Source of the DNA: Candidatus Thorarchaeota archaeon
GTDB taxonomy: Archaea > Asgardarchaeota > Thorarchaeia > Thorarchaeales > Thorarchaeaceae
Length of the DNA stretch: 64,000 bases
Direction of reading: 5' to 3'
Assembly (NCBI GenBank): GCA_019057475.1
Contig: DXJO01000038.1
Coordinates: forward strand, 32,001 to 96,000
Positions within the stretch are counted from its first letter, which is position 1. Each line of letters starts with the position of its first letter. The notes beneath the pieces were generated by a model that worked only from the letters and a program-made list of their open reading frames with translations, did no database searches and was not told the DNA's origin. A program made the translations under genes and the position numbers. Below, piece after piece: positions 1,719 to 19,179 of this stretch.

Positions 1719-2462
1719 CTATGCTTCGAATAGGCCATTTGCTTTCAGGATCATGGCAAGGTAACGATGAGGTGGAACCTGTACGACACGCCCCAAATCA
1801 ACATTCAAGATGTAGATGGAGTCAAGTGCAGTCTGAGCAAGCAAGTCCATTGCGATTGATGGCGACGAGTAATAGGTATCACAGAGAGCCTTCAGTTGCT
1901 GCAGTTCTTTCTTTTTGCGATCCTCTGGAAAACGGAGAAGGATTTCAGGTACTTGTAGAACATGGTAACCGGGTGTGGCTAGGGCGAATCTTTGGCTATG
2001 ACCACTATACCGGGCTATCTTTGCAGCAATCCGTGCCTGTCTATAGCGTATGGGTGCGAGAGCAGCCTCTGGCGGTACGAATCCGGTTTCCACTTCTACC
2101 ACTAGTGTTTTCCTAGGCCCTGGCGTAGTATTGTCCCTTCTGTATGGCTTCTGGTCGCTACGACTAGGTGAGTCTGTCGAAAATGCTGATTCTTCTGAGC
2201 GAGAGCTCACAGCATATATGTCGGCAACTAGGGCGCCACCATCAAGCGGATGTTCCACAACTACTCGGTACCCATGCTCAATTAGATGCCAGGCACAAAG
2301 AACCTCCATTACACTGTGGTTGATCTTCACGAGGCGTCGCTTGTGAAGGCTCACCAGCCTATTCCGGACTTCAACCAGCTGCTGCATCACTTTTGGATTT
2401 GGCCTAGGCTTGATTTGCATAAGCAGACGGTCCAAATCTCGGGAGAACTTGTCTTTCGCCAC
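1719..2462 (-). CDS. Conserved archaeal hypothetical protein with PD-(D/E)xK nuclease-like motifs
   Basis: GY.V.VEH..LVADIYA...VVEVETG pattern; KINHSVME and ARIAAKIARYS blocks resemble a conserved archaeal family. Confidence 0.55.
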   Translation of the reverse strand: MAKDKFSRDLDRLLMQIKPRPNPKVMQQLVEVRNRLVSLHKRRLVKINHSVMEVLCAWHLIEHGYRVVVEHPLDGGALVADIYAVSSRSEESAFSTDSPSRSDQKPYRRDNTTPGPRKTLVVEVETGFVPPEAALAPIRYRQARIAAKIARYSGHSQRFALATPGYHVLQVPEILLRFPEDRKKKELQQLKALCDTYYSSPSIAMDLLAQTALDSIYILNVDLGRVVQVPPHRYLAMILKANGLFEA

Positions 2463-2570
2463 GATGTCACCAACTCAGTTCTTACTGTGCTGTGGACTCT
2501 CGTGCCTTTTGATATGAAGTCCCTAAGAGCCTACCGCTGTTCTGGTTGGAGTTTCATAGGAAGGAGGGGA

Positions 2571-2843
2571 GGCTTACCCCGAAAGCCCGGAGGAATGCTC
2601 GTCATTCTAAACGGAAATCCTCACGGCCCCAGAGCTTGTCAGGCTCGAAAGGGTCATCCGTGGCTGAGTACTGTGAACAGGCGACTCTCGAGTCGTTTGA
2701 GAGTGCTACCGATCCCGCCATGGCAAAAACCGCGGAAACACCGTCTGCCGCCATCGACGCTCTAAAGGCCTCTGACAGTCATGGCAAAGCAGTGCAGCGG
2801 ACTGAAGCTCAGTCTGGAAAGAGGGATAATGTTCCTGTGAAGT
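2571..2843 (+). repeat. Direct repeat copy 1 of the tnpB 3' region (orphan omega-RNA-like fragment)
   Basis: Aligns ungapped to 15883-16155 with about 19 mismatches in 273 nt (counted by eye). Confidence 0.95.
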
Positions 2844-2885
2844 TAGGGTACTATCCTCTTTGCTGGGAACATTGATGTGTGCACA

Positions 2886-3209
2886 TCAGCTATTTGGACT
2901 CTCCTGAGGGGTAATTCTGTAGTAAAACACATTCTTGCCCAAGGTGAACTTAGCAATCAGTCCCTTGTTTTTGAGTCTAGTTAGGGTTCTTCGTATCTGA
3001 TTTGCCGGCTTCCCGACTAGGTTGGATATTTCACGTATGGTATGAGTCGCATCACAAAGAAGATAGACTATCTTCTGTTCTCCCGTCAAGGCATATCTCT
3101 CAGGCTGTGCAGGTGAAATATGCATCTGCAGTAGTGCTGACAGTAGACCCGATATCCTATCTAATATAACCAGCAGCTTATTCTCAAACTCATTGTTTCT
3201 CGATGTCAA
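2886..3209 (-). CDS. Small winged-helix DNA-binding protein (MarR/ArsR-like)
   Basis: TIREISNLVGKPANQIRRTLTRLKNKGLI HTH followed by a beta-wing (NVFYYRI). Confidence 0.7.
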   Translation of the reverse strand: MTSRNNEFENKLLVILDRISGLLSALLQMHISPAQPERYALTGEQKIVYLLCDATHTIREISNLVGKPANQIRRTLTRLKNKGLIAKFTLGKNVFYYRITPQESPNS

Positions 3210-3437
3210 CTTGCTACTTCTCCATAACTCTTAGATCCGTTGATGGCATCTTGAGTGGAATCTAACTGAAACGCCAAGATATGACACCAATAAGGGATAT
3301 TTATGCTTCCTTTGTTAGTCAGAACTAGGCCAATCGTTGTCTGTGTAATTAAGAAATTACTTGGCAGGCACAAACCAGCCGCCATACGATCATTTCAATT
3401 GACTGATTTACAATGCCTCTTAGAGATATGAACATCA

Positions 3438-4268
3438 TCATTTCTTCTTCTTGACGAGCCGGCCCTTCTCGTCCATTACTCCTTTTATGATTCCTATGAT
3501 TCGAAGCAGCATAATCACAGCTGCGTTTGCATTTTTCCTAATCGAAATCATCTTCTTCTTAGTGACGAAATCTACGACGCTATGCGCTGACTCATTTCCT
3601 TTCCTTCGAAGGCCCTTGATAGAAGCCAGATGGTTTTTCGTGAAACCATACTTCACATAGTCACCAGATATCTGCTCGAAGTTTAGAACTAAGGATTTTA
3701 GGGGGAGAAAACGGTTCGTACCATCATCAAAATACATCTTATGTTGATTCGTCGGTTCATACTTAAAGCGTAGAATATCAATTACTAGATTCTCCACCAG
3801 CTTTCTCAGCATGACACGTGCAGAGGAAAATGCTTCGTACTCAAAGCAGGTGTTAATCTCATCGATTAGCAAACTGTATACCTTGTCAACTCTATACACG
3901 TTTTCAATGTCTATGAAGTCAGGTTGCGAAGGCATCTTCCGGCTAGGTACACTAGTTTCCGCTTTTTCTCCGGGCAAATACATTTGTCCGGGAACTACCA
4001 TTGGGATTTCTTGGGCTAGATCCTTGAACTTCTGTGCAGAACGTTTCCTCATCACGAAGACCATAGTTTCTTTCTTGCATAATGGACATTCGACTCTGCA
4101 AATTCCTTTCTGTATATCCTCACCTGACCGACCTATTTTCATCTGGAATTTGCTGTACTCTTCCGGTTTGAAGTAGAATGCATACCACCCATGCTTGTCA
4201 AAAGCCAGTCGGAGATTCCTACCACAGTCTTCAGTTTGACAGACGATAGGAATGACTACTCCGCTCAT
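3438..4268 (-). CDS. Zn-ribbon + HEPN/DUF4145-like protein (putative RNase toxin)
   Basis: N-terminal CxxxxC...CPLC; C-terminal EINTCF..ARVMLRKLVE and RRKGNESAH (RxxxN/H HEPN-type motif). Confidence 0.6.
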   Translation of the reverse strand: MSGVVIPIVCQTEDCGRNLRLAFDKHGWYAFYFKPEEYSKFQMKIGRSGEDIQKGICRVECPLCKKETMVFVMRKRSAQKFKDLAQEIPMVVPGQMYLPGEKAETSVPSRKMPSQPDFIDIENVYRVDKVYSLLIDEINTCFEYEAFSSARVMLRKLVENLVIDILRFKYEPTNQHKMYFDDGTNRFLPLKSLVLNFEQISGDYVKYGFTKNHLASIKGLRRKGNESAHSVVDFVTKKKMISIRKNANAAVIMLLRIIGIIKGVMDEKGRLVKKKK

Positions 4269-4322
4269 GCAATATCACCACAGACAGACAACATCAGCTC
4301 GAATACAACTGCTCGTGTCCAT

Positions 4323-4755
4323 CTACACTGCGGAGTCCATCTTCTTTTCACACTTAAAAATGACTTCTCCTGCCATTTGAAGTGCCCAACAAATCCTATC
4401 AGGCCTGATCGCGTAGTTGTCACCTTCTTTCTCGAATCCGTCAGCGAGGCCTTCCTGTTTACTTGAAAGATATGTCGCAAGAGAGTCAGGATTAATCATC
4501 AATACATTCTGCAACTCATCTTTCGACATCCCTTGAGGATACTGTAACATCAATGCGCATACAATCTTCTGCTTTGCAGTAGCAGTTCCCTCGGGGAACG
4601 AGATTGCAGTCGCATATTGGTCCGATGCCAACATATGTCGCAACCTTGAGCTTAGTTAATCCAATCTCAATTTCTATCAATGCATCCGACCAATTTTCAA
4701 ATTCGCCGACTTGCAGTTCGTAGTTATTATAGAATGCTGAGAACGTCCGCTTCAT
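4323..4755 (-). pseudogene. Frameshifted member of the winged-helix paralog family
   Basis: ORF 4516-4755 matches the N-terminus of 5808-6302 (NWSDA motif), and ORF 4323-4643 in another frame matches its C-terminal wHTH; frame switch near 4620-4640. Confidence 0.7.
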
Positions 4756-5007
4756 TTTGACAGTACCTCCTACATCAGTGCACTACCCCATTTCCTCCAT
4801 TTTAATCTGGCGTATCGTGATGACTACATCATTAACTTGGGAATCCTTCGAGCAAGAAACATCATAGTGAATTGTGAAACGGTGGAGTCGCTTAACATAA
4901 TTACTACTCATGCAAAGATTAGTTGTTATAAACCCGGTCCACTAATGATGGGCGATAATCAAATATCGGTCTTCTTCATTTAATTAGCCTGACTCTGATA
5001 ATATAAC

Positions 5008-5562
5008 TTGGGTTCTCCTGCGAAGGTGATTAAGCGTATGGAAGAGATTGAAACTAAGGGGGTTATGCTGGAAAGAACTGTACGAAACACGATCGTGCGC
5101 ATCACTGCAAAGAACGGCGAATCTCTTGATGAAGCATACAATAGGCTCGCCGAAATATGCCAGAGTATTGAGGATACTGAAGCAGCCAAAGAGCGCGAGA
5201 AGTGGACTGAGGATATGCACCCAGAGGTGGAAGAAGCCACATCAAAAGTAGAGGCTCTCCTTGGTTTGGATGCCAATGAGAGAAGAGGAGTAAGCCTAAC
5301 AGATGAGTATCACATGGTTATACTGTCACTGCTAATGCATTTTGACGAGTGCAAGGGTTCCGTTTCCATCGCCAAGGAATGGAATATTAACAGCGGCAGA
5401 GTTTCACGAGTCTTCACAGCGTCGCGCAAGAAGCATGAGAAGTACAAGGGGCATTTCGAGAAATGCAAGATGGGAGGTTACCGTTTCACTAGAGAAGGCC
5501 TAAATCACGCATTGGAATATGGGGTGTCCGCGATATTGGGCGAAGAGAGTGATGTCGGCTAG
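5008..5562 (+). CDS. wHTH paralog family protein
   Basis: LDEAYNRLAEI N-module; HMVILSLL..SIAKEWNINSGRVSRVF..GGYRFTREGL wHTH. Confidence 0.7.
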   Translation: MGSPAKVIKRMEEIETKGVMLERTVRNTIVRITAKNGESLDEAYNRLAEICQSIEDTEAAKEREKWTEDMHPEVEEATSKVEALLGLDANERRGVSLTDEYHMVILSLLMHFDECKGSVSIAKEWNINSGRVSRVFTASRKKHEKYKGHFEKCKMGGYRFTREGLNHALEYGVSAILGEESDVG

Positions 5563-5807
5563 CAAGCTCTAGTTTCGTGAGTAGGTCATTTCCCGATTAG
5601 ATGTCGGAAGCAAATAGTTCGCGTTTCTTCATACCTAAATTGGAGTGTTAAGCATTCAATCTGGTTTCAGAGTCATGCTGCCTAGGATCCCCCATTGACA
5701 TCTCCTCTCATTCGATACCAACAAAGCTAATGCTGATGATTTGATGAAAAAGATTTAGTATAGGTTCGGTACTCTCAGCCAACGCGCAAGCAAAGGACCA
5801 TGGTAGT

Positions 5808-6302
5808 ATGACAAAGGAAGAGGAATCTATAGATGACAGTGGGGACTGGGTAGAGCTGCAGATCAAGCATGGCAATACCATACTGTCAGTGGGTGGACAC
5901 AACTGGTCTGACGCCATAGCAAAGGCAGCTCTTGGAAAGATGAAATGCAGAATTGCTGCAGTTGCAGGTTACGCAACAGAGTACAGTTCGGAGCTGAAAC
6001 AGTGGGTCATTGTGTTTGGAGAACCCATAGGCCAAATCAAGAGTCGAATTGCACTAGCGTTGCTGTTAGCTTTTCCAGAAAGGCTCTCAAGGGAGGAGTT
6101 GGTGAAGATGGTCGACATCAAGCCAAATCGGATTAGGGAGTATCTTACCAACACGAAAAAAGGCGTCAAACCCCACGTAGACGAAAACAAGAAGTCCGGC
6201 ATTATTCTGAATACCAAGGGCTACTCATGGGCGGTTGGGATTCTGGAATCAATTGAAGAAGCTAGATCCCACGAATCGAAAGGTGATGATATTGAGCAGT
6301 GA
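5808..6302 (+). CDS. wHTH paralog family protein
   Basis: SRIALALLLAFPERLSREELVKMVDIKPNRIREYL..IILNTKGYSW. Confidence 0.7.
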   Translation: MTKEEESIDDSGDWVELQIKHGNTILSVGGHNWSDAIAKAALGKMKCRIAAVAGYATEYSSELKQWVIVFGEPIGQIKSRIALALLLAFPERLSREELVKMVDIKPNRIREYLTNTKKGVKPHVDENKKSGIILNTKGYSWAVGILESIEEARSHESKGDDIEQ

Positions 6303-6765
6303 TCAGACAGATTTGAAGATTCGATTGAGTAGAACGATGAATAACATCCAGATTGAAGTCTGGCTAAGCAGCGAAGATGAGTTCAGAGAAGGCTATGCGC
6401 TTCTCAGACGACTCTGCGAAAGGGCAGAATTTGAGGAACTCAGACTAGACCTGGGTCAATTTAGAGTCAGAGATGATGAAGGACACAGAATAGCTGAGCA
6501 AGTTACTGAGGGTACGCACAGAGTAGCTCTATCACTCCTTGATAGTTGGCCAGATTCCAAGAGAGTCACCGACATTCAAGTTGAAACCGGACTATCACAG
6601 GGACACGTTTCGAATATACTCGAGGGCCGTCGAGGCGACGTGGGACACTGGTTCGAGAAGGAGAGAGATCTCTGGAAGCTATCACCCATTGGAGTGAGAG
6701 CCATTGTCGAAGAGGTCGTTCCAGCCCTGTTTGAGCAACAACGTTCTGGAGGGGGAACTCAATGA
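6235..6765 (+). CDS. wHTH paralog family protein (true start may be slightly downstream)
   Basis: HRVALSLLDSWP..DIQVETGLSQGHVSNIL..WKLSPIGV..VVP. Confidence 0.75.
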   Translation: MGFWNQLKKLDPTNRKVMILSSDQTDLKIRLSRTMNNIQIEVWLSSEDEFREGYALLRRLCERAEFEELRLDLGQFRVRDDEGHRIAEQVTEGTHRVALSLLDSWPDSKRVTDIQVETGLSQGHVSNILEGRRGDVGHWFEKERDLWKLSPIGVRAIVEEVVPALFEQQRSGGGTQ

Positions 6766-7286
6766 ACGCCAACGAAGAACAGGAGTTGACAGTCGAGATT
6801 GAGAAGTCTAGGAGCGGCACGAAGATTCGAGTTGTGGGAATATCCGCAAGTACGGACGAAGCGCAATTCGATCAAGCATACAAACTAGCGGATGAACTTT
6901 ATAGGAGAATCGAAACACTCGACCTTGAAATTGAATCGGAAAACAAAATCCAACAGGCCAAGAATCAAGTTTCTCATCTTTGGGTTCAAGAGGAAAACAA
7001 ATGGAAACTCTCCGCTTCTGTTACGGAGGCATCACACCGAATCGCACTGTCACTCCTTAGAAGCTATCCGAAGTGCATAACTCAAGCAGATGTAATCAGA
7101 GAAACAAACATAGCTCAGAAGACTGTCAGCAATCATCTAGGAGGACGAAAAAAGGAGGTTCGCATATATTTCTCGAAATGTGATGGCGGTTATCAACTAA
7201 GCCAAGATGGACTCAATTGGACCATCACGAAGGTCATTCCCAAGGCCATTGGCCAAGAGATGCCGAATGAAAGGAAAGAGGAATAG
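6762..7286 (+). CDS. wHTH paralog family protein
   Basis: FDQAYKLADELY N-module; HRIALSLLRSYP..VIRETNIAQKTVSNHL..GYQLSQDGLNW..VIP; ATGA overlap with the previous gene. Confidence 0.75.
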   Translation: MNANEEQELTVEIEKSRSGTKIRVVGISASTDEAQFDQAYKLADELYRRIETLDLEIESENKIQQAKNQVSHLWVQEENKWKLSASVTEASHRIALSLLRSYPKCITQADVIRETNIAQKTVSNHLGGRKKEVRIYFSKCDGGYQLSQDGLNWTITKVIPKAIGQEMPNERKEE

Positions 7287-7289
7287 TTA

Positions 7290-8264
7290 ATGACTGATTC
7301 CGACAAACAAACCTTCTTGATCAGGAAGAAATCAGCAGGACTGGAAATCGAAACACGAGTTGATGAGAAGAATCTCGATAATGCATACCTAAAATTGGAG
7401 GAATTATGGGCACATTTCAGTCAATTGGATGAAGAGTTGGAACCCAAACGAAAAATTCGCGATCTAGTGAAAGAATGTCAGAAGTACTGGGTTCGGAAAG
7501 ATGGGAAACGGTACCTAGCGAAGGACGTTGCTTCTGTATCTCATCGAGTCGGACTATCTGTGCTCGATGGGGGCAACAAAGGAAAGAGCCTGAAGGCCAT
7601 TGCCGACGAAACCGGGTTGTCTTCACCCCTTGCGCGGTATCACCTAACTGACGCCAAGGGAGCATCAGGGTGGTGCTTACAAGATGAAAAAAGACATTGG
7701 AAACTAACACCGGAGGGATTGGAGCACGTTACAAACATAGTAATTCCGTATTTACAGGGCCGTCACGGAAATGAACTCCACATGATTCTGAAATGGATGA
7801 ATAACAGAATATACAAGGGTCAGTTTGATAGCTGGATACTCGGCAAGGTCCAAGGAAAGGTGGACAAAACCAACTTCTTGGAATATGCCGTTGGATTGCT
7901 CCTATCAGCTTTAGGTTTCCTAGTATACCAAGTGGGCATGTATAACGATAGATTCGATATCGTTGCCTGTCCGCCAGATGGGTCTATCATGCTGGTATGT
8001 GACTGTACAACAGGTTCAGTCAGAAAGAAGTCATCGGGTCTCAGCATAGTCGTGGAAGAACTCAGGACCGAATTTCCAGAGATGCACGTAGAGGGTGTTG
8101 TTTTCACAACGGAAAGAATTAGTAAGACTGATCGAAAGGATTTGCTTAGCGACAAGATTGGGATTGTTGATGCAACTCAGATCAAGGAACTCCTCAAGCT
8201 AGCAAAATCCGATCGAAATCCCGAGCTGTTGTTTGATGTCATGAGGAAGAAGGAAACGCGATAG
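7290..8264 (+). CDS. wHTH paralog fused to a C-terminal Mrr-like restriction endonuclease domain
   Basis: LDNAYLKLEELW N-module and wHTH, then FLEYAVGLLLSALGF..RFDIVA..LVCDCT..GVVFT..IGIVD (PD-(D/E)xK-like fold, with a non-canonical third residue). Confidence 0.65.
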   Translation: MTDSDKQTFLIRKKSAGLEIETRVDEKNLDNAYLKLEELWAHFSQLDEELEPKRKIRDLVKECQKYWVRKDGKRYLAKDVASVSHRVGLSVLDGGNKGKSLKAIADETGLSSPLARYHLTDAKGASGWCLQDEKRHWKLTPEGLEHVTNIVIPYLQGRHGNELHMILKWMNNRIYKGQFDSWILGKVQGKVDKTNFLEYAVGLLLSALGFLVYQVGMYNDRFDIVACPPDGSIMLVCDCTTGSVRKKSSGLSIVVEELRTEFPEMHVEGVVFTTERISKTDRKDLLSDKIGIVDATQIKELLKLAKSDRNPELLFDVMRKKETR

Positions 8265-8319
8265 CTATTCTATGCCCAAACGCTCCATAAACAGCTTTGG
8301 TTACTCACTCTTGCATTGT

Positions 8320-9204
8320 TCACTCACTTGGGCGCAGGACAGAACTCATGTATTCCCTTACTCTCTCCGTTTCGAAGAAGTAGTACAATCCATCATCTGA
8401 TAAACGGAAACCTCTCTTGCATTTTGAGAAGTATTGAGAGTGGTCATGCTGTATCCCCGTTATGATTCGGGAAATGGATGACTTAACCAGACCAGTTTCC
8501 AAGGCGATTTCTTGCAGAGTCCTGCAATCGGGGTACGCTCTAAGGAGTGAAACCATAATCTTGTAAGGGGGCTTTGACTCTTCGGACTTTCTGCCAAGAG
8601 CTTCAAGCGAGCCATCATTTACATAGATAGACCAGTGACCGTCTTCCCTGCGCCAGAGATTAGTAGTCCCCTGTTTTGCACGCTTAATCATTTCATCGAA
8701 CTCTTCAGTTACATAGTCAATGGATTGAACCGGATGTTTCTCTGGAAGGGCATTGAGGACACGCAGAATCTGGTCCTGAACCTTCCGTGGGCTCTTCACA
8801 GATGTGGAATTCCCAAAAATTCTCTTGTATTCGATGACGTAGTAGCTTTTAGTGTCGAAAGGAAGTTCTCTTATCTTTTGAGTGAGTAGAATAAATGGCT
8901 TGCTCAAACCCCATGCAAGACCTAACTCTAGGAAGACATTCGGATTCGAGCCTGACAGGTCAGCAATAATCGCCCTAGATTCTTGTATGTTGGCACATAT
9001 CTTGCACCAAATCTCGGGTTTGCTCAAGTCGGAATCGGCTCTATGAACAGTCCAACCTGGCAAAGATTTCAGAACATCGTGAAATAGGCTCTGGGGCGCC
9101 TCCTTCTCTCGAAAGGGCATAAGCACAAACAGTTTGCGTGGATCATACTTCACGTTGACACCACACCGCTCGTAGTTCTTCGGGCATATGATTGGTATAC
9201 TCAT
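8320..9204 (-). CDS. Nucleoside 2-deoxyribosyltransferase/TIR-like domain fused to the family wHTH
   Basis: LFVLMPF..RAD..IQESRAIIADLSGSNPNVFLELGLAWGLSKPFILL; C-terminal SLLRAYP..EIALETGLVKSSISRI..GFRLSDDGL. Confidence 0.75.
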   Translation of the reverse strand: MSIPIICPKNYERCGVNVKYDPRKLFVLMPFREKEAPQSLFHDVLKSLPGWTVHRADSDLSKPEIWCKICANIQESRAIIADLSGSNPNVFLELGLAWGLSKPFILLTQKIRELPFDTKSYYVIEYKRIFGNSTSVKSPRKVQDQILRVLNALPEKHPVQSIDYVTEEFDEMIKRAKQGTTNLWRREDGHWSIYVNDGSLEALGRKSEESKPPYKIMVSLLRAYPDCRTLQEIALETGLVKSSISRIITGIQHDHSQYFSKCKRGFRLSDDGLYYFFETERVREYMSSVLRPSE

Positions 9205-9294
9205 AACTCTACACTTTCTCGGAAGAATCAGCTGCAGCTGCCCTGCTTCCCGTGCCCGATTCCCATGAATCGCATGTTAATTTGCCACTCAAGT

Positions 9295-12200
9295 TCAATG
9301 AGTGACACTTCCTAGAAGATGCTCAATCTTGGAGATGAGTCCATCATAGTTTTCTATCCTCTCCTTTGCTTCCTCATCACTTCCGAAGTACGACTCCACA
9401 ATCTCTTGAATCAGGCTTTCAGCATGGTCAAGTGTTCTAGCAACCCCGCTCTGAGGAGGTGTTGTCGCAAGGATCCAGTTGTACACCTGTTCCCCTGTCT
9501 TGTTGGATCTAGCACTAAGCTGAATTTCTGACTTGAACTTGAGCACAGTACAGACCAACTTCTCTTCGTCCATCTCAAGATAGCTGCCAGCCCGGATTGC
9601 CCTCAGGCCTAGTTCTCTCACGATTCGTCGACTCTCTCTGAACACCATGCCCTCTCTAGTCGTGGGGTCTGGAACGAACTCAAACGCGAACTCGCACCAT
9701 GCATTTCCGAGAAATGCACCTCCTGCCAACATCATTGCAGATATCTCTGAGTCGTCAAGTCCAGTCTTGGTCAGTCCAGATAGGCTGGTATCCTTGTCCC
9801 CATCCGAGAGCTCTACGCGCCAGCATGCACCATGACACTCCATTTCTCCGCTGGCTATGGGACATAGCTCCTCGTCGTGAGTCACAACCAGCGTTTGATG
9901 AGCGACCTCTCGGCTCGTGAGGTCCTCTGCGGTTGATGGCAGGGTCGTGCGAAAGCGGACGTACGGAGTCCTCTGCTCTACGTAGGGCCTCAGAATCTCC
10001 AGTGCATCATAATCAATGTCATCATAGGGGTTCCATGTCAGATAGGTTTCTGTGTCTTTCAGACTCTGCAGTGGAAGACCATCGACTATTGGACGTCGAA
10101 GCAGCGCGAGGAGCTCAGACGTGTGCTGGATGGACCAGCTCTCGATCAATTCGTTTCCATCAGCTCTATTGAACTCAATCGTGTAGTGGTCGTCATCCAC
10201 GTCCAGTGTGCATTTCGTCGAAACACAAAGGCTGAGTGACTCCGATATATCCTCAAGTACTCCTTGCACTCTCTTCCCTAGTGCCCGCGGAAATCGAAAC
10301 CATTCCGGCAGTAGTGGGAAGTCCTGTTCAGGCATTGTTGTGATCTGAAGTCCGCGGATGCCAGCAAGCGTTTCTCCTCTCCTCCTTATCGTGGTGAGCT
10401 TGCCCAGAGGCGTCCAATTCTCTTCATCGCGAAACCAGAAGTAATCTCCCCCGGCGGACCTATGCACGATTACGTCGTACGTGGCAGTTGCACCTACATG
10501 CTTAGACAAGCACAACGCAATCTCATCCTGACGGATTGCAGTCCAGCTTACTGTTTGCTTGGGCACAAATGGTTCGCATCCAATCCATACCCCAATCAGC
10601 ATTTTCCGACGGTCGTAGGGGTTCTCTATCGCCAAGCAATACTCCGGAGTTTCGTGCTCTTCTGACAGCACCAGAATCTGACCGTAGCTCACAGTACTCA
10701 GTTCAGGAACGTTCAGTGAGGTCATGGCTTTAGCCCGTTTCGCAAGTCCTGACCACACAGCTCTCAGATCGAGTCTAGGTGTGACCTCTTCTGACTCAGA
10801 GTTCATAAGGACGAATCCCATCTGCATGATTTGCCAAGACTTGAGAATCCTCCATAGCTCCGATAAATGCCTGTCAGCCAAAGTTGGGAACTCCCTAGTG
10901 AGCCCCAAGAGCAACAGGAAGAGGTAGTTGCCAAGAGAAACGGACAGGTACGGTCGCACACTGAGAAGATCCAGCAGCATCTCCCTGTCCTGTGCTCTCA
11001 GTCCCTCTACCAACCGGCTATCTCGAACCCACTGGAGCGTCGCCCATACTGGCTCAGAAACCGGACTCGTCTGCAAAAATCTCACGATGTCATCAAGCGC
11101 CTCGATGTGACCCTGTTTTCCATCGCCAATCGAAATCAATTCATCGAGCTCATCGAGGAACTGCGACCAGCTCGACCCGTCCTTCTCATGTCCCACTTGC
11201 CGAAGGATCCTGACGGCCTGACGAAGCCGCCTGAGTTCAAGCCGCGTGGCTCTCTCGATATCATGGCCAAAGCGCAGAGTGGCCTCTATGGGAGGTCTGT
11301 AGATACTCGCGCCCGTGCACTCTCGATTACTGTCCTTCCTGTAGGCACGTTGATGTGTGATGCTGTTCCTTGGCAGCAACGCAACACTCTCAACGAATGC
11401 TCTCCCGTGTCCCACTGTCTGCATTCTTGTCCTGTATTTCAGAAAAGGAGCTCCAGAAGGCCTGCTCTTCGAGCCATATTCAGACAGTGGCACGACATGA
11501 ATTTGCCGTCCCCCAGTATCATCCGCTTTCTGTACAATGCTCTCTGACAGATACTGCTTCAACTGAGGCACGAGCTCGATGGAGTCCCGAAAGAAATCAT
11601 CTTGCATCTCTGAATTGTGCATGACATCAGCAGACCGAATCACCGTTCGTCCTCTTTCTCCTTCTTGAGCGGATGAAACTGATGCTCGCCTTGGCTCATT
11701 CCAGAACCTTGGAGACCAGTTGTGAAGCGGTAGTACCTCTACCATGTTGAAAGAGATACCATCAATGTCCTGTCTTATGATGACTCTGAGGTCATCGAAC
11801 GCAGATGTCAACTGGCCTGATGCATACGGTCGCACGGGGAGATTCCATACGATCTCTGTGACGAAGCGGTTGAGTTCGGAACCTTGGAAGAACGGCTCCA
11901 TTGTCCTTCTCTGATAGGATGCTGAAGTACCTTCTGAGTTTCTAGGCCTGTCAAACCAGACTACCGTACAACCTGCCTCATTCAACTCAGCCGCGATTAT
12001 GCGTCGCAGCTCATAGAGTGCCGGCCGTAGTCGTTTTGGTGTGCAGTCATCCAGTACATCCCAGCCACTGACCACAACAACCCTACCATCTAGAGCATCC
12101 CATTCCTCTCCCACGAGCTTTGCTATCGACAGGTCCCCGATTCCTCTGAAGAGGAAGTCCTGTATAGCTGACGAGGCATCGCTGAACATGACTGCGCGGA

Positions 12201-14235
12201 AGAACTCGCGCATGTGGTCACTGCCTTGATCTGACCTGAGTCTAGTCCTAGCCAAAGACTCGGCTCCAAAGTCACCTGCCAAGTCCAACCACAGCATTTC
12301 AGAGTGATCATTCTCCTGTTGGAGGCCGTGGATGAGCTCAAGTCCGTGCCAGTACTTGGCTATCCAAGCAGCAGAGGGCCCTGATCTAGACGCGGAGTTC
12401 ACACTCAGATAGAGAATGAAGCGGCCTCTCGCCTTACCATTCTCCTCTAGTGGGCTGCGTTGCTCAACACCCCACAAAGGCCAGCCCTTTTTCCCAATCT
12501 GTTTCAACTGGTCAGCAGCTATGCCATGCACGATGATAGCAAGTTTCAGCCAATCCCGGGTTCCGTCATTCAAGACAACTCCCACTGGTCTGCTGAGATG
12601 CTCTTTGAGAAGGACTGAGGCGTTCTCACACAGAGCTCGCGTGAGTCGCCATAGTCTGGGACGTACCACAGAGGAGTCCTGCGAAGTGTCAAGGACCACA
12701 GTACCGGTCAGAGGCCGCACCACTGAACGGTCCTCTGTGATTCTCACATACTCCGTAGCAAGACCTTCGGCATAGGCCTCGAGCTGTTTCATGCCGTACC
12801 CCGTTGGCGTTCCGGCAACAGACGCATTCCACTCGGCGTTCGTGAGCCCGCGCTTTCTGAGAACAAACTTGGGAATAACCTTCTGTCCGTGTTTCTTGGA
12901 ATCCTTCTTCTCAGCTTTAATCTCCCAATTGAAAGCAGTCTTGCTCTTGATGTCAAAGACAGCCACGGGTATCCATACGGTCAGTTTGCCCGGCACTCTC
13001 GGGTTCTGAATCACATGACGTCTGAACATCACGAGATCCGCCCGCCCCTTCCCTAGGGAGGTTTCCACAGGGATTTCTGCTGCAAGGAGCCACTGGTCAC
13101 CCTCCTCCACCCAACGGTCACCGTTGAAGACCACCGACTCCAAGTCGTATGGCTGGACGAGTCCGTTAGTCATCAACCTGTGCCATCTGATGCCGTGCCA
13201 TCTCGCCCTCCGCATAACTTCCTTTTGTAGCCACTCACCGTCCTCATCCCGAAGGATGCCACGTTCGCATAGGTCCTTGAGGAAGTCCGCCCAGGCCTGA
13301 CGAATCTCACTCTCGGAGGCTTCCTCTTCCGGATACCTCAACTGCGTGACCTGGTCCAGGAAGAATGAAAGGTCCCACCTAGCCCTCGACTCCTCAATGG
13401 ACTGTGTCAGTGATGGCGCCCGCCCATAGTGTGTCCCGTAAAACGCCTCGATCTCCTGGACTATCTCTCGGAGAATCCAGTTCGCGTCAAGCTGTTCACT
13501 ATCCCTCCGCCCACTTCTTCTCGAACGCTTGAACCCCCGCTTCCCGCTCTCCTTCGAGGTGTAGAGATACTCGAGGAACGGTGACAGCCGCCATATCAGC
13601 AGGCCAACATACCTGCGCGCGTTGTTCATCGGCACGTCGTTGATGAAGCACTTACGACACAGTTCGAAGATGTGGGCTCTCAGCATGTCCCCGAAGTCCA
13701 GCTCCGCAAGGACAGTGTGAGCCACCTCAACCCATGGATAGTCGCTCCCGCCTTCGTACCCTGCAATCCACCTCTTGCCGCGTCGACCTGCTGTCTTTGG
13801 CTCTGGAAACGGAAACCTTGTCACGACCCAGTTCCTCAGTTGTGCGCCAGCCATGTTCAGTAGTCTGTTGAGCGGCCCAATCCTCCCCTTCCTCTCGTTC
13901 TGTATCCGCTTGTACTCCCTGTTGCCGTAGCGCGCGGTGGTTTCCCAGATCATCTTGTTGAAGTTGCGACGCATGTGTTTCTCGACGTTTGTAATGTGAG
14001 AAAAGTCGGGTTTGCCACCGCGTCTGCTCGCGCGCCACTTGCTCAGTGCTTCGGTCCACTGCCTTTGAGTGCTGGCATAGACATCCTCGATGCTCTTGAT
14101 CGTGCGCTCGCGGAAGAGGTCACGCAGTGCCGAAAGACCGTTGAGGTACGCGCGAGCTATGGCCTGCGCTGGGTCGTGGGGGTATGGCCTCTGTTCACTC
14201 TCCTTGAGGTTATCCATCGCGGGCACGCGTATCAC
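9295..14235 (-). CDS. 1646-aa giant hypothetical protein with a PD-(D/E)xK (RecB-like) nuclease motif
   Basis: Long uninterrupted ORF; EIPV..GRADLV..VFDIKSK..QLEAYA motif. Confidence 0.7.
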   Translation of the reverse strand: MIRVPAMDNLKESEQRPYPHDPAQAIARAYLNGLSALRDLFRERTIKSIEDVYASTQRQWTEALSKWRASRRGGKPDFSHITNVEKHMRRNFNKMIWETTARYGNREYKRIQNERKGRIGPLNRLLNMAGAQLRNWVVTRFPFPEPKTAGRRGKRWIAGYEGGSDYPWVEVAHTVLAELDFGDMLRAHIFELCRKCFINDVPMNNARRYVGLLIWRLSPFLEYLYTSKESGKRGFKRSRRSGRRDSEQLDANWILREIVQEIEAFYGTHYGRAPSLTQSIEESRARWDLSFFLDQVTQLRYPEEEASESEIRQAWADFLKDLCERGILRDEDGEWLQKEVMRRARWHGIRWHRLMTNGLVQPYDLESVVFNGDRWVEEGDQWLLAAEIPVETSLGKGRADLVMFRRHVIQNPRVPGKLTVWIPVAVFDIKSKTAFNWEIKAEKKDSKKHGQKVIPKFVLRKRGLTNAEWNASVAGTPTGYGMKQLEAYAEGLATEYVRITEDRSVVRPLTGTVVLDTSQDSSVVRPRLWRLTRALCENASVLLKEHLSRPVGVVLNDGTRDWLKLAIIVHGIAADQLKQIGKKGWPLWGVEQRSPLEENGKARGRFILYLSVNSASRSGPSAAWIAKYWHGLELIHGLQQENDHSEMLWLDLAGDFGAESLARTRLRSDQGSDHMREFFRAVMFSDASSAIQDFLFRGIGDLSIAKLVGEEWDALDGRVVVVSGWDVLDDCTPKRLRPALYELRRIIAAELNEAGCTVVWFDRPRNSEGTSASYQRRTMEPFFQGSELNRFVTEIVWNLPVRPYASGQLTSAFDDLRVIIRQDIDGISFNMVEVLPLHNWSPRFWNEPRRASVSSAQEGERGRTVIRSADVMHNSEMQDDFFRDSIELVPQLKQYLSESIVQKADDTGGRQIHVVPLSEYGSKSRPSGAPFLKYRTRMQTVGHGRAFVESVALLPRNSITHQRAYRKDSNRECTGASIYRPPIEATLRFGHDIERATRLELRRLRQAVRILRQVGHEKDGSSWSQFLDELDELISIGDGKQGHIEALDDIVRFLQTSPVSEPVWATLQWVRDSRLVEGLRAQDREMLLDLLSVRPYLSVSLGNYLFLLLLGLTREFPTLADRHLSELWRILKSWQIMQMGFVLMNSESEEVTPRLDLRAVWSGLAKRAKAMTSLNVPELSTVSYGQILVLSEEHETPEYCLAIENPYDRRKMLIGVWIGCEPFVPKQTVSWTAIRQDEIALCLSKHVGATATYDVIVHRSAGGDYFWFRDEENWTPLGKLTTIRRRGETLAGIRGLQITTMPEQDFPLLPEWFRFPRALGKRVQGVLEDISESLSLCVSTKCTLDVDDDHYTIEFNRADGNELIESWSIQHTSELLALLRRPIVDGLPLQSLKDTETYLTWNPYDDIDYDALEILRPYVEQRTPYVRFRTTLPSTAEDLTSREVAHQTLVVTHDEELCPIASGEMECHGACWRVELSDGDKDTSLSGLTKTGLDDSEISAMMLAGGAFLGNAWCEFAFEFVPDPTTREGMVFRESRRIVRELGLRAIRAGSYLEMDEEKLVCTVLKFKSEIQLSARSNKTGEQVYNWILATTPPQSGVARTLDHAESLIQEIVESYFGSDEEAKERIENYDGLISKIEHLLGSVTH

Positions 14236-14483
14236 TCGGGCATTTTGTAGGGTTATAGCCTAATAAAAGCGCGGTCTTTTCTCATTCTTTCCTCTTACTC
14301 TGGCTTGAAATCTTCGAAGTTAGAACCCGAACAGGTTCCTTTATTCAAATAATCTTCATAGATTTATATGATGTCAGTAGTAAGAAAGTGTGGAGGTTAT
14401 CACCCGACTTCCGTAGAAAGATGTTGAGTGAAAACCCTCTGACCAGAAACAGGTCGGAGATTTATATGGTACGGTGAACTTGA

Positions 14484-16280
14484 GTGGGTCTCTCCAAGGG
14501 AATAGTAACAAGTGTCAAGGTCCCGATTCGTTGGGACTCTATGACCAAACGGCAGCAAACTCGCCTTTCCCGAATCACAAGCCGGGATACTAGGGTGATT
14601 CGTGCCTTCCTTGGAGTGATTGCACGTCACGAGAAAGAACTTCTTGTCGGTAAGAAAAAGAAGAAGATCAGCGGTGCAAAGCTTGAGAAGCTGACCCTGA
14701 CTGCTACAAGATTCAAAGACGCATCTAAGAACCGAACCACAGTTCCCCACGACTTCAAGAAACGATTCCCGAACATATCGCTGAATGAGCTTCAGGAGTG
14801 CAGACAGGTGGCCGCTGCAATGTGGCAGAGCTATCTCGAACTTGGGGGCAAGCCTCCTCTCCATACTCATGGTTACAGGCCGCGCAAGCTGCCTCGGTAC
14901 ATCTATACTCGAAGGTTCAAGATAGTCTATACTCCTGAGAAAGAGATCAAGCACTGGCTCAGGCTGATGGACTCCCTCGACTCTGAAAAGACAGAGGGAC
15001 GATATCATGACTATCTGATGGTTCCTCTCAATCCCTCTTCCTATCATCTGAATAGGATCAACGAGGGCAAGGTGACGTCACTTCGGCTTCTGAAAGATAC
15101 CCGGAAGAAGTGGTGGGTGGTGTTCGCTGTACGCGTGGATGTCCCCGCGGTTGACAACAGCTCGAAGCCACCAGCAGTGACAGGCATAGACCTAGGGATC
15201 AACAAGGCAGTCTGTTCGGTAGTCTTGACTCAGACTCGTGTCAGGTTCGTGGGATACTTCACGCAGCCTGAGAAGGTCAAGCGAATCAAGCGGTACGATG
15301 AGATGGTCGACTCTCTTCAGAGAGAGATGAACACCAGACTCAACAACGGGCAGTCAGCAGATGGAGTCATCCAAAGACTTCGCGAGCTGAGCGGGCGACG
15401 TAACCGAATCAGTATCGACCACGACCGGGTGCTTGTCAGGCGGCTCACTGACCACATCTTGAAGTTGTCAAAGAAGTACGACCTGTACGTGGCGATTGGC
15501 AAACTGACCGGGATTCGGAAGAGTGCCAACAGGGACAGCAAGAAACCGAAGGCATTCCGGGCGATGGTCGGACGGTGGTCTTTTGCAAGAGTCACCAATG
15601 CGTTGAGGCAGAAGCTGTCCGAGAGCGGCTGGAAAGTCAGTGGTCGTGATTCCCGATTCATTCCGGTCCGCGAGTACTGGACTAGCCGAGTCTGTTCCAA
15701 GTGTGGGCACATTGGAATACGCCCGAAGCAGTCTGTCTTCATCTGCCATACCTGCGGTCACAAGACCAATGCCGACAAGAACGGCGCCATCAATATCGCA
15801 AGGCGCCTCATTATGCTCATTCCTTCACTGAAGGATGAGAAAAGACTAGGGAGTTGGCTTCATCCTCACGAAAGAGAGGGGTGGCTTACCCCGAAAGCCC
15901 GGAGGAACGCTCGCCGTTCTAAAGGGAAGTCCTCACGGCCCCAGAGCTTGTCAGGCTCGAAAGGGTCGTCCGTGGCTGAGTACAATGAGCAAGCGACTCT
16001 CGAGTCGTTTGTGAGTGCTACCGATCCCGCCATGGTAAAAACCGCGAAAAAACCGTCTGCCGCCATCGACGCTCTAAAGGCCTCTGACAGTCATGGCAAA
16101 GCAGTGCAGCGGACTGAAGCTCAGTCTGGAAAGAGGAACGATGTTCCCTTGAAGTCTAGCGAAGCCCGTGTCATAGCGTCGGCGTGGAACCCGATGTATG
16201 CTGGCGACAGTCGTCACGGGAAGGGTGGAACGCGTGGGTTGAAGGTTACCGAGGGTGTTCACTCACTTTCTGAAACTTGA
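14484..16280 (+). CDS. tnpB: TnpB/Cas12-family RNA-guided endonuclease with rearranged RuvC-II and a long C-terminal extension
   Basis: RuvC-I GIDLG; VAIGKL (G at the usual E); downstream REYWTSRVC; zinc finger CSKC..CHTC; RuvC-III NADKNGAINI. Confidence 0.9.
   Translation: MGLSKGIVTSVKVPIRWDSMTKRQQTRLSRITSRDTRVIRAFLGVIARHEKELLVGKKKKKISGAKLEKLTLTATRFKDASKNRTTVPHDFKKRFPNISLNELQECRQVAAAMWQSYLELGGKPPLHTHGYRPRKLPRYIYTRRFKIVYTPEKEIKHWLRLMDSLDSEKTEGRYHDYLMVPLNPSSYHLNRINEGKVTSLRLLKDTRKKWWVVFAVRVDVPAVDNSSKPPAVTGIDLGINKAVCSVVLTQTRVRFVGYFTQPEKVKRIKRYDEMVDSLQREMNTRLNNGQSADGVIQRLRELSGRRNRISIDHDRVLVRRLTDHILKLSKKYDLYVAIGKLTGIRKSANRDSKKPKAFRAMVGRWSFARVTNALRQKLSESGWKVSGRDSRFIPVREYWTSRVCSKCGHIGIRPKQSVFICHTCGHKTNADKNGAINIARRLIMLIPSLKDEKRLGSWLHPHEREGWLTPKARRNARRSKGKSSRPQSLSGSKGSSVAEYNEQATLESFVSATDPAMVKTAKKPSAAIDALKASDSHGKAVQRTEAQSGKRNDVPLKSSEARVIASAWNPMYAGDSRHGKGGTRGLKVTEGVHSLSET
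15883..16155 (+). repeat. Direct repeat copy 2, inside the tnpB 3' end (probable omega-RNA scaffold region)
   Basis: Matches 2571-2843; hairpins with a compensatory change between the copies. Confidence 0.9.
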
Positions 16281-16598: not shown

Positions 16599-17009
16599 AT
16601 GCCCCCTAAGGATATGAACGTCATAATTTTTGGATGTATGCAGTGCTGTTACGCTGCAGCGGACCTAGCGGGCACGATGAAGTTACAGTACGACGTGACG
16701 AGCCGGCTAATCCGCATGCCGTGCACCGCGCGCCTGGACATCAACTTCATCCTGAAGGCGTTGCAGGAGGGTGCGGACGGCGTGCTGATTGTTGGCTGTC
16801 ATCCGGGAGACTGCGCGTTCAAGACCGGCAACCTAGGGGCAGAGCGACGCGTCAGATTCGCAAGGAAGCTGATTGGCCAACTGGGCCTGAACGAGAATCG
16901 TGTGAAGATGGTGTTCGTGAGCGCTGCAGAGGGCGACCTGTTCGTCAAGCACGTCAACGACTTCGCAGATGAGATCAGGGCGATAGGGCCAAACCCGATA
17001 AGGCTCTAG
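16599..17009 (+). CDS. mvhD: Methyl-viologen-reducing hydrogenase delta subunit (MvhD/FlpD)
   Basis: CMQCCYAAADLAG, RMPCTAR, GADGVLIVGCHPGDC, VSAAEG motifs. Confidence 0.92.
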   Translation: MPPKDMNVIIFGCMQCCYAAADLAGTMKLQYDVTSRLIRMPCTARLDINFILKALQEGADGVLIVGCHPGDCAFKTGNLGAERRVRFARKLIGQLGLNENRVKMVFVSAAEGDLFVKHVNDFADEIRAIGPNPIRL

Positions 17010-17772: not shown

Positions 17773-18139
17773 ATGTATGTACGCTGCAGCGGACCTAGCG
17801 GGCACGATGAAGTTACAGTACGATGTCACGTGTCGGCTAATCCGTATGCCCTGCACCGCGCGCCTGGACATCAACTTTATTCTGAAGGCCTTGCAGGAGG
17901 GGGCGGACGGCGTGCTGATTGTCGGTTGTCATCCCGGAGACTGCGCGTACAAGACGGGGAACCTGGGGGCAGAGCGACGCGTCAGATTCGCAAGGAAGCT
18001 GATTGGCCAACTGGGCCTGAACGAGGGCCGAGTGAAGATGGTGTTCGTGAGTGCGGCGGAGGGCGACCTGTTCGCGAGGGAGGTCAACGATTTCGCTGAC
18101 GAGATCAGGGCGATAGGACCTAACCCTATTAGGCTCTAA
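17773..18139 (+). pseudogene. mvhD: Second, 5'-truncated mvhD copy lacking the QCC codons
   Basis: Near-identical protein to 16599-17009; ATGTATG|TACGCT junction versus ATGTATG-CAGTGCTGT-TACGCT in copy 1; unrelated sequence upstream. Confidence 0.75.
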
Positions 18140-19085: not shown

Positions 19086-19120
19086 AGGCACCTTGAAAAT
19101 CCACTCTGTAAGGAAACGAC

Positions 19121-19179
19121 AGGTCAATGACTTCACTGACGAGATCAGGGCGATAGGGCCGAACCCGATAAGACTCTGA
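19121..19179 (+). repeat. Third copy of the mvhD 3' end (VNDFTDEIRAIGPNPIRL-stop)
   Basis: Near-identical to 16953-17009 and to the end of copy 2. Confidence 0.9.

Follow-up and report, generated by a model that had tools for sequence, protein, structure and literature searches.

What function is served by a cluster of related winged-helix genes, two of them fused to enzyme-like domains, in the genome of an Asgard archaeon? The cluster lies in a 64,000 nt stretch (the window) from a Candidatus Thorarchaeota archaeon (assembly GCA_019057475.1), corresponding to positions 32,001-96,000 of contig DXJO01000038.1 (C18), in a 3.34-Mb genome that is 96% complete. An initial annotation of the DNA letters had described the cluster as an array of seven paralogues forming a hetero-oligomeric sensor or scaffold that recruits interchangeable effectors. 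Our verdict is that the cluster is real, conserved and undescribed in the libraries and papers that we searched, and that it most likely works like a toxin-regulator defence cassette.

A common module in seven paralogous genes

All seven open reading frames (ORFs; named here by their left-hand coordinate) were found where the initial annotation had placed them. To assess relatedness, their products were compared by pairwise local alignment, each against 500 shuffles. The products of ORFs 5008, 6235, 6762, 7290 and 8320 were interlinked with z scores of 9-25, and for most pairs 0 of the 500 shuffles reached the score; the direct pairs 5008/7290 and 7290/8320 were weak. The products of 4323 and 5808 matched each other at z 14 and were linked to 6762 at z 5.8 and 8.9, respectively. 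The segments thus align significantly to each other (z 5.8-25), which, with the ORF positions, bears out the proposal of seven paralogous winged-helix genes with one common module. A profile built from the seven genes found no eighth copy of the module elsewhere in the genome.

The module is approximately 155 amino acids (aa) in length and comprises a beta-hairpin, a long helix and a short hairpin, followed by a MarR/ArsR-like winged helix. In the AlphaFold2 model of the 6762 product (predicted local distance difference test score, 91.5), the long helix spans 40 residues, and the winged helix is a three-helix bundle (residues 90-101, 108-115 and 119-126) with a beta wing (137-146). A fold search with residues 84-174 of this product, the winged-helix part, placed it in the winged-helix superfamily, with VIA Z scores to MarR proteins of 8.6 [root-mean-square deviation (rmsd) 4.4 over 84 residues] and 8.5 (rmsd 2.6 over 79 residues); Z scores of 7-8.6 to MarR-, ArsR- and PadR-type folds are a common level. 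The N-terminus of the module, a beta-hairpin and a 40-residue helix, is unlike the all-helical dimerization arms of the MarR and ArsR families. The initial annotation had distinguished two N-terminal modules, of DEAY and NWSDA type; both are present, but they are the same domain, because the subfamilies of 5808 and 6762 matched in profile-profile comparison with E 3e-12 across residues 11-143.

The module falls outside all Pfam, NCBIfam and PADLOC models. The best matches to the MarR/ArsR Pfam models (E 0.003-0.008, in one or two of 40 members) were under the cut-off, and the sole match in PADLOC v2 (2023 library) was to a short generic helix-turn-helix (HTH) in one of the 40, with no system model matched. 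We found no description of the family in the literature, and no solved structure related by sequence to the module, the 7290 nuclease or the HEPN protein described below. The earlier view of an undescribed family that matches no named system is upheld by these searches.

When 1.84 billion representatives were searched by profile, 185 matches were obtained. About 137 of the matches listed were family members (median 157 aa) and ten were repeat-HTH noise; the 150 matches listed fell into about 135 clusters at 50% identity. The tree resolved about ten subfamilies, most of them well supported, and the window carries subfamilies C, E, D, I, F, J and G. A locus usually has one gene of each subfamily that it contains. 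Recognition helices are conserved within subfamilies and differ between them, and ratios of non-synonymous to synonymous substitution rates (dN/dS) of 0.04-0.55 in orthologue pairs reflect purifying selection. The subfamilies, about ten in all, arose by early duplications of the module within this Thorarchaeota family and have been maintained by selection. Over its whole length, the module matched (template-modelling score about 0.54) unnamed archaeal clusters, mostly from Bathyarchaeota. In the ESM Atlas, too, unnamed clusters from Bathyarchaeota and Nitrososphaerota (142-171 aa) are similar to the entire module, and the archaeal range of the family may be much wider than that found here.

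Effector domains accompany the module and are exchanged between paralogues

All of the loci with at least two module genes and enough flanking DNA (19/19; these loci are related, not independent) encode a HEPN, PD-(D/E)xK, NDT/TIR-like or deaminase domain. The enzymes are either joined to a module in one protein or encoded beside a module gene. The same nuclease is attached to subfamily J or E, the NDT domain to G or A, and a second HEPN family to G/F-like modules, whilst the slot after F is taken in some loci by a 450-aa nuclease or a deaminase. This exchange between paralogues agrees with the interchangeable effectors proposed by the initial annotation. The two HEPN-like families showed no detectable relationship to each other.

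The C-terminal domain of the 7290 product has a restriction-endonuclease fold, with VIA Z scores of 11.1 to BspD6I (rmsd 3.4, 143 residues aligned), 10.6 to AF1548 and 10.3 to FokI, and a Foldseek E value of 5.6e-4. Residues E198 and D223 are invariant, and a dN/dS of 0.04 in the nuclease part indicates strong conservation. The Mrr_cat family (PF04471) matched weakly (E 0.0033) in two of nine relatives and did not match the window protein. The domain had been called a toxic, Mrr-like nuclease; the PD-(D/E)xK fold stands, and the toxic function is best called putative because motif III reads (D/E)-C-T. Neither genome contigs nor viral contigs yielded a relative in pattern scans with the nuclease fusion; alignments of the module itself were too divergent for scans of this kind.

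The N-terminal domain of the 8320 product had been read as NDT/TIR-like, rightly so: it has the NDT/TIR fold signature with an invariant catalytic glutamate (E93) and matched a PADLOC TIR effector with E 1e-10. The Pfam NDT model scored 20.2 bits, against a cut-off of 28.8. The module of this protein lacks the first hairpin.

An eighth gene of the cluster, 3438, had been overlooked. Its product carries C10, C15, C61 and C64 and a HEPN motif, R221-x2-G-N-x2-A-H229, all invariant across eight orthologues; matches of the orthologues to DUF4145 were weak and under the cut-off (E 4e-4 in one orthologue). An NC10 relative of the HEPN protein had no called module neighbour.

Gene order and distribution

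The module genes of the window form about four units, distributed over both strands (Table 1). Only 5808-8264 is operon-like, with gaps of -17, -4 and +3, as the initial annotation had noted. The seven members of its array therefore stand, but not as an array on a single strand: 4323 and 8320 have the opposite orientation (minus strand), and 5038 is set apart. One member is broken, with 4323-4755 spread over two frames (4516-4755 and 4323-4643). Intact orthologues exist, the probable source run shows no difference from the window at 4323-4755, and pieces from two further runs deviate there by 8 gap letters; on these grounds we regard this gene as a real pseudogene of the strain.

Table 1. Features of the module cluster and its surroundings (window coordinates)
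Feature	Position	Strand	Remarks
Module gene, subfamily C	4323..4755	-	Frameshifted near 4640; pseudogene in this strain
Module gene, subfamily E	5038..5562	+	Likely start 5038; ORF open from 5008
Module gene, subfamily D	5808..6302	+	First gene of the operon
Module gene, subfamily I	6286..6765	+	Likely start 6286; ORF open from 6235
Module gene, subfamily F	6762..7286	+	Hairpin 10-25, helix 33-73, hairpin 74-83, winged HTH 90-164
Module (subfamily J) fused to C-terminal PD-(D/E)xK-fold domain	7290..8264	+	
Cys-rich NDT/TIR-like domain fused to module (subfamily G)	8320..9204	-	
Zn-finger and DUF4145-like HEPN putative RNase, 276 aa	3438..4268	-	Belongs to the cluster
BRE (B recognition element)-TATA-like promoter GAAAAAGATTTAGTA	5746..5790	+	Conserved; GCGC motif ~22 nt downstream; putative function
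Multicopy Thorarchaeota protein, 1646 aa, probably aCas1	9295..14235	-	Neighbour, outside the module family
TnpB-like nuclease	14484..16280	+	Ends in GTTCACTCA (16257-16265)
Partial copy of the neighbouring tnpB 3' region (280 nt, 93%)	2564..2843	+	Left bracket of the island

A recurring layout consists of two divergent operons, with A, C, the Zn-finger HEPN gene and B2 running leftwards and D, I, F and the J-nuclease fusion running rightwards. It is found in loci L045-L047 and L049, and partly in L034, L009 and L040; L025, L037 and L060 are reshuffled, and L058 is reduced to two genes. The D-I-F-J order is conserved, with overlapping genes, and the promoter-like element with its GCGC motif could be aligned before the subfamily D genes in most loci, that of the window included. 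The minimal form, in which a HEPN gene comes after two module genes, was seen in genome G211, which belongs to another Asgard family, and in a record from Nitrosotalea, in the latter near an integrase gene. Module genes number from one to about eight per locus, no subfamily being universal. Single genes belong to subfamily H, after tnpB, and to subfamily E, beside mvhD; solo genes therefore exist, yet multi-gene clusters recur. At L050:161-1120, on a single 1.5-kb contig, two complete modules of different subfamilies lie in one ORF.

The module is carried by 11 of the 85 genomes of the same family and, among the 400 genomes searched, by a single genome from another Asgard family; many of the genomes are incomplete. 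In related strains, some contigs pass over window positions 2588-5728, 5843-8297 or 6185-9314. This patchy presence and strain-level loss of blocks fit defence islands, and several loci neighbour type I restriction-modification, Swt1 HEPN, ParE/PemK and RAMP genes; the recurring gene orders and defence-type neighbours support the initial suggestion of a conserved cluster in a defence context. Panacea/SocA-like genes with ParE- or PIN-like partners also adjoin the cluster in L045, L046, L049, L058 and L027.

Proposed mode of action and its alternatives

On balance, and judging from sequence and predicted structure, we think it somewhat probable that the cluster is a modular toxin-and-guard cassette for defence of the abortive-infection type, sited in an integration hotspot beside a probable aCas1-TnpB element. 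Both the binding between subunits and the defence activity are features that we infer. The N-terminal hairpin and long helix would mediate the pairing of modules, including unlike ones, and paralogues that carry no effector would hold the HEPN RNase, the PD-(D/E)xK DNase or the NDT/TIR-like nucleotide hydrolase inactive. Some paralogues may repress the cassette's own promoter, upstream of D, and the differing winged helices may each sense their own nucleic-acid or protein cue. Removal or binding of a guard by a virus or mobile element would free the enzyme, leading to cell arrest or death. We envisage that the cassette would act as separable small units and not as one fixed complex.

Several observations weigh against this reading. 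Motif III of the 7290 nuclease domain (residues 238-240) is (D/E)-C-T in 9/9 rows and lacks the canonical lysine, for which the invariant K247, seven residues past the motif, might substitute; one relative weakly matches an inactive-nuclease family. The single H and E genes have no adjacent effector, effector genes in a hotspot may co-locate without joint function, and the two-module ORF, known from one short contig, could reflect a lost stop codon. Complex prediction for the D, I, J (residues 1-160) and F proteins scored 0.02, gave no answer and is not used as evidence here.

A more elaborate proposal is that of a combinatorial immune system, in which paralogous winged-helix subunits hetero-oligomerize through the hairpin-helix domain, each subfamily reads a different cue, and swappable RNase, DNase, NADase-like or deaminase effectors are docked. 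As a joint claim we hold this to be possible, if doubtful.

It is rather unlikely that the paralogues are transcription regulators of the island, each with its own operator controlling neighbouring toxin or cargo genes in the manner of C proteins, CapH or BrxR, and that the fusions are independent DNA-guided toxins. Regulation would accord with the MarR/ArsR-like fold, with the way recognition helices are kept within subfamilies and vary between them, with divergent operons in which both the promoter and a motif near the start site are conserved, and with the occurrence of single module genes. However, no palindromic operators were found in the intergenic DNA of the window, nor short inverted repeats in the four intergenic regions scanned, and the winged-helix parts of two window proteins are acidic (isoelectric points of 4.7 and 5.2). 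It would also be hard to explain why two or three enzyme genes should need seven or eight regulators with translational coupling in one operon.

The initial annotation's single large hetero-oligomer, in which all paralogues build one scaffold or sensor that docks any module-bearing effector, can be likened to ESCRT-II or PCI complexes. The usual presence of one gene per subfamily, the conserved and overlapping D-I-F-J genes, the swapping of effectors between paralogues and the tandem two-module ORF are what such an assembly would lead one to expect. We nevertheless consider it improbable. An obligate seven-subunit complex is unlikely because membership ranges from one to about eight genes with no universal subfamily, related strains skip 5843-8297 or 6185-9314, member C of the window is a pseudogene and single genes occur; L044, L053 and L060, in addition, each carry two genes of one subfamily. 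Smaller hetero-pairs of paralogues are plausible.

Returning to the toxin-and-guard cassette, our analysis defines a previously unannotated archaeal protein family that is tied to toxic-type effectors and missed by current defence-annotation libraries, and the three-gene minimal version allows direct testing. If the paralogues do pair and gate effectors, an Asgard archaeon would be widening its immune repertoire through adaptor duplication and effector swaps.

Comparison with known systems

The closest precedent is the type IX retron Kva2, in which a winged-helix protein encircles the HEPN active site and helps to suppress the RNase until infection (10.64898/2026.07.14.738597). As in Kva2, the cluster encodes a winged-helix protein together with a HEPN RNase, and the precedent counts in favour of an inhibitory role for the effector-free paralogues. 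The cluster differs in its many paralogous winged-helix proteins and several effector types, and no reverse transcriptase (PF00078), which retrons of types II-A and IX would require, was found in the 96% complete genome. Type IV restriction endonucleases with winged-helix fusions (DpnI, FcyTI; PMC11037411) likewise combine a winged helix and PD-(D/E)xK in one chain, but in the cluster the winged helix is N-terminal, with an extra hairpin-helix module, effector-free paralogues and a (D/E)-C-T motif III. DpnI was not among the matches listed in the winged-helix fold search, which does not exclude a DpnI-type winged helix.

TIR effectors (Cap12) of the cyclic-oligonucleotide-based antiphage signalling system (CBASS) share with the 8320 domain an NDT/TIR-type fold with a conserved catalytic glutamate, as does the NDT-winged HTH effector of retron Eco1. 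Here, in contrast, the partner of the NDT domain is the module, and the locus has no cyclase, STING domain or multicopy single-stranded DNA partner; models of the CBASS cyclase (CD-NTase) matched none of the locus proteins scanned. The MarR/ArsR/PadR regulators, CapH, BrxR/CapW and Csa3 have in common with the cluster the winged-helix fold and divergent promoter layout, but the module has a different N-terminal domain, lacks a WYL or CARF ligand domain and is below all Pfam cut-offs.

A probable mobile element and an integration hotspot beside the cluster

The cluster adjoins a giant gene that forms one unit with a divergent tnpB. The 1646-aa protein has no Pfam match and occurs in 56 of the 85 family genomes. 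In this genome the gene has five diverged full-length copies (in the window and on C9, C42, C53 and C54; 26-42% identity), three of them arranged back to back with tnpB and the other two with a gene of 719-766 aa. The motif GTTCACTCA at the tnpB 3' end has been described for Asgard aCas1-TnpB loci (PMC10691335), and its presence here and in related loci fits that description; the unit is probably an aCas1-TnpB element. The element is a neighbour of the cluster, and most of its copies lack one. Because most giant-gene copies are without a cluster and several clusters are without a giant gene, we regard the cluster rather as a co-resident of the element or its occasional cargo. It is very unlikely that its genes are accessory or addiction genes of the element, serving regulation or post-segregational killing and not antiviral defence: the cluster does abut the giant gene or the tnpB end in the window, G007, L035, L037, L053 and L060, subfamily H directly follows tnpB, and partial tnpB copies bracket the cluster twice (in G007 by a similar local copy of 83 nt, 95%), but the widespread giant gene is accompanied by the cluster at only one of its five full-length places here, and the clusters of L044-L046, L058, L061 and L064 have no giant gene in the available DNA.

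Besides a full mvhD-like gene (16599-17009), the window contains two duplicates of the 3' part (17780-18138 and 19120-19177) and a 40-nt relic of the 5' part (3404-3443), and relatives have up to four mvhD copies at the same site. Such repetition identifies this site as an integration hotspot and suggests that mvhD is a repeated integration target. There are no tRNA genes in the window. The sequence GTTCACTCAC at 8318 was rejected as an element end, with 7 occurrences in the genome against 6.4 expected.

Inverted GTTCACTCA-like motifs lie on both tnpB flanks in the window (14425-14433 and 16257-16265) and in L025, L029, L030 and L063; on the 3' side, some 20 variable bases separate the flanking motif from a conserved GGTGCATGCA motif. 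Beyond residue 440, the TnpB ORF continues as a long C-terminal extension of low complexity that probably overlaps the TnpB guide RNA. In the same genome, the nuclease domain seen in the 7290 product occurs twice more without a module (C51:92903-98065), next to a fragment from the C-terminal part of the giant gene (71% identity). The island also contains a TrmB/ArsR-type HTH gene (107 aa; 2886-3209, minus strand), which was rejected as a member of the module family, being unrelated to it. A 247-aa gene (1719-2462, minus strand) encodes nuclease-like acidic motifs with no family match, and also borders the G007 cluster.

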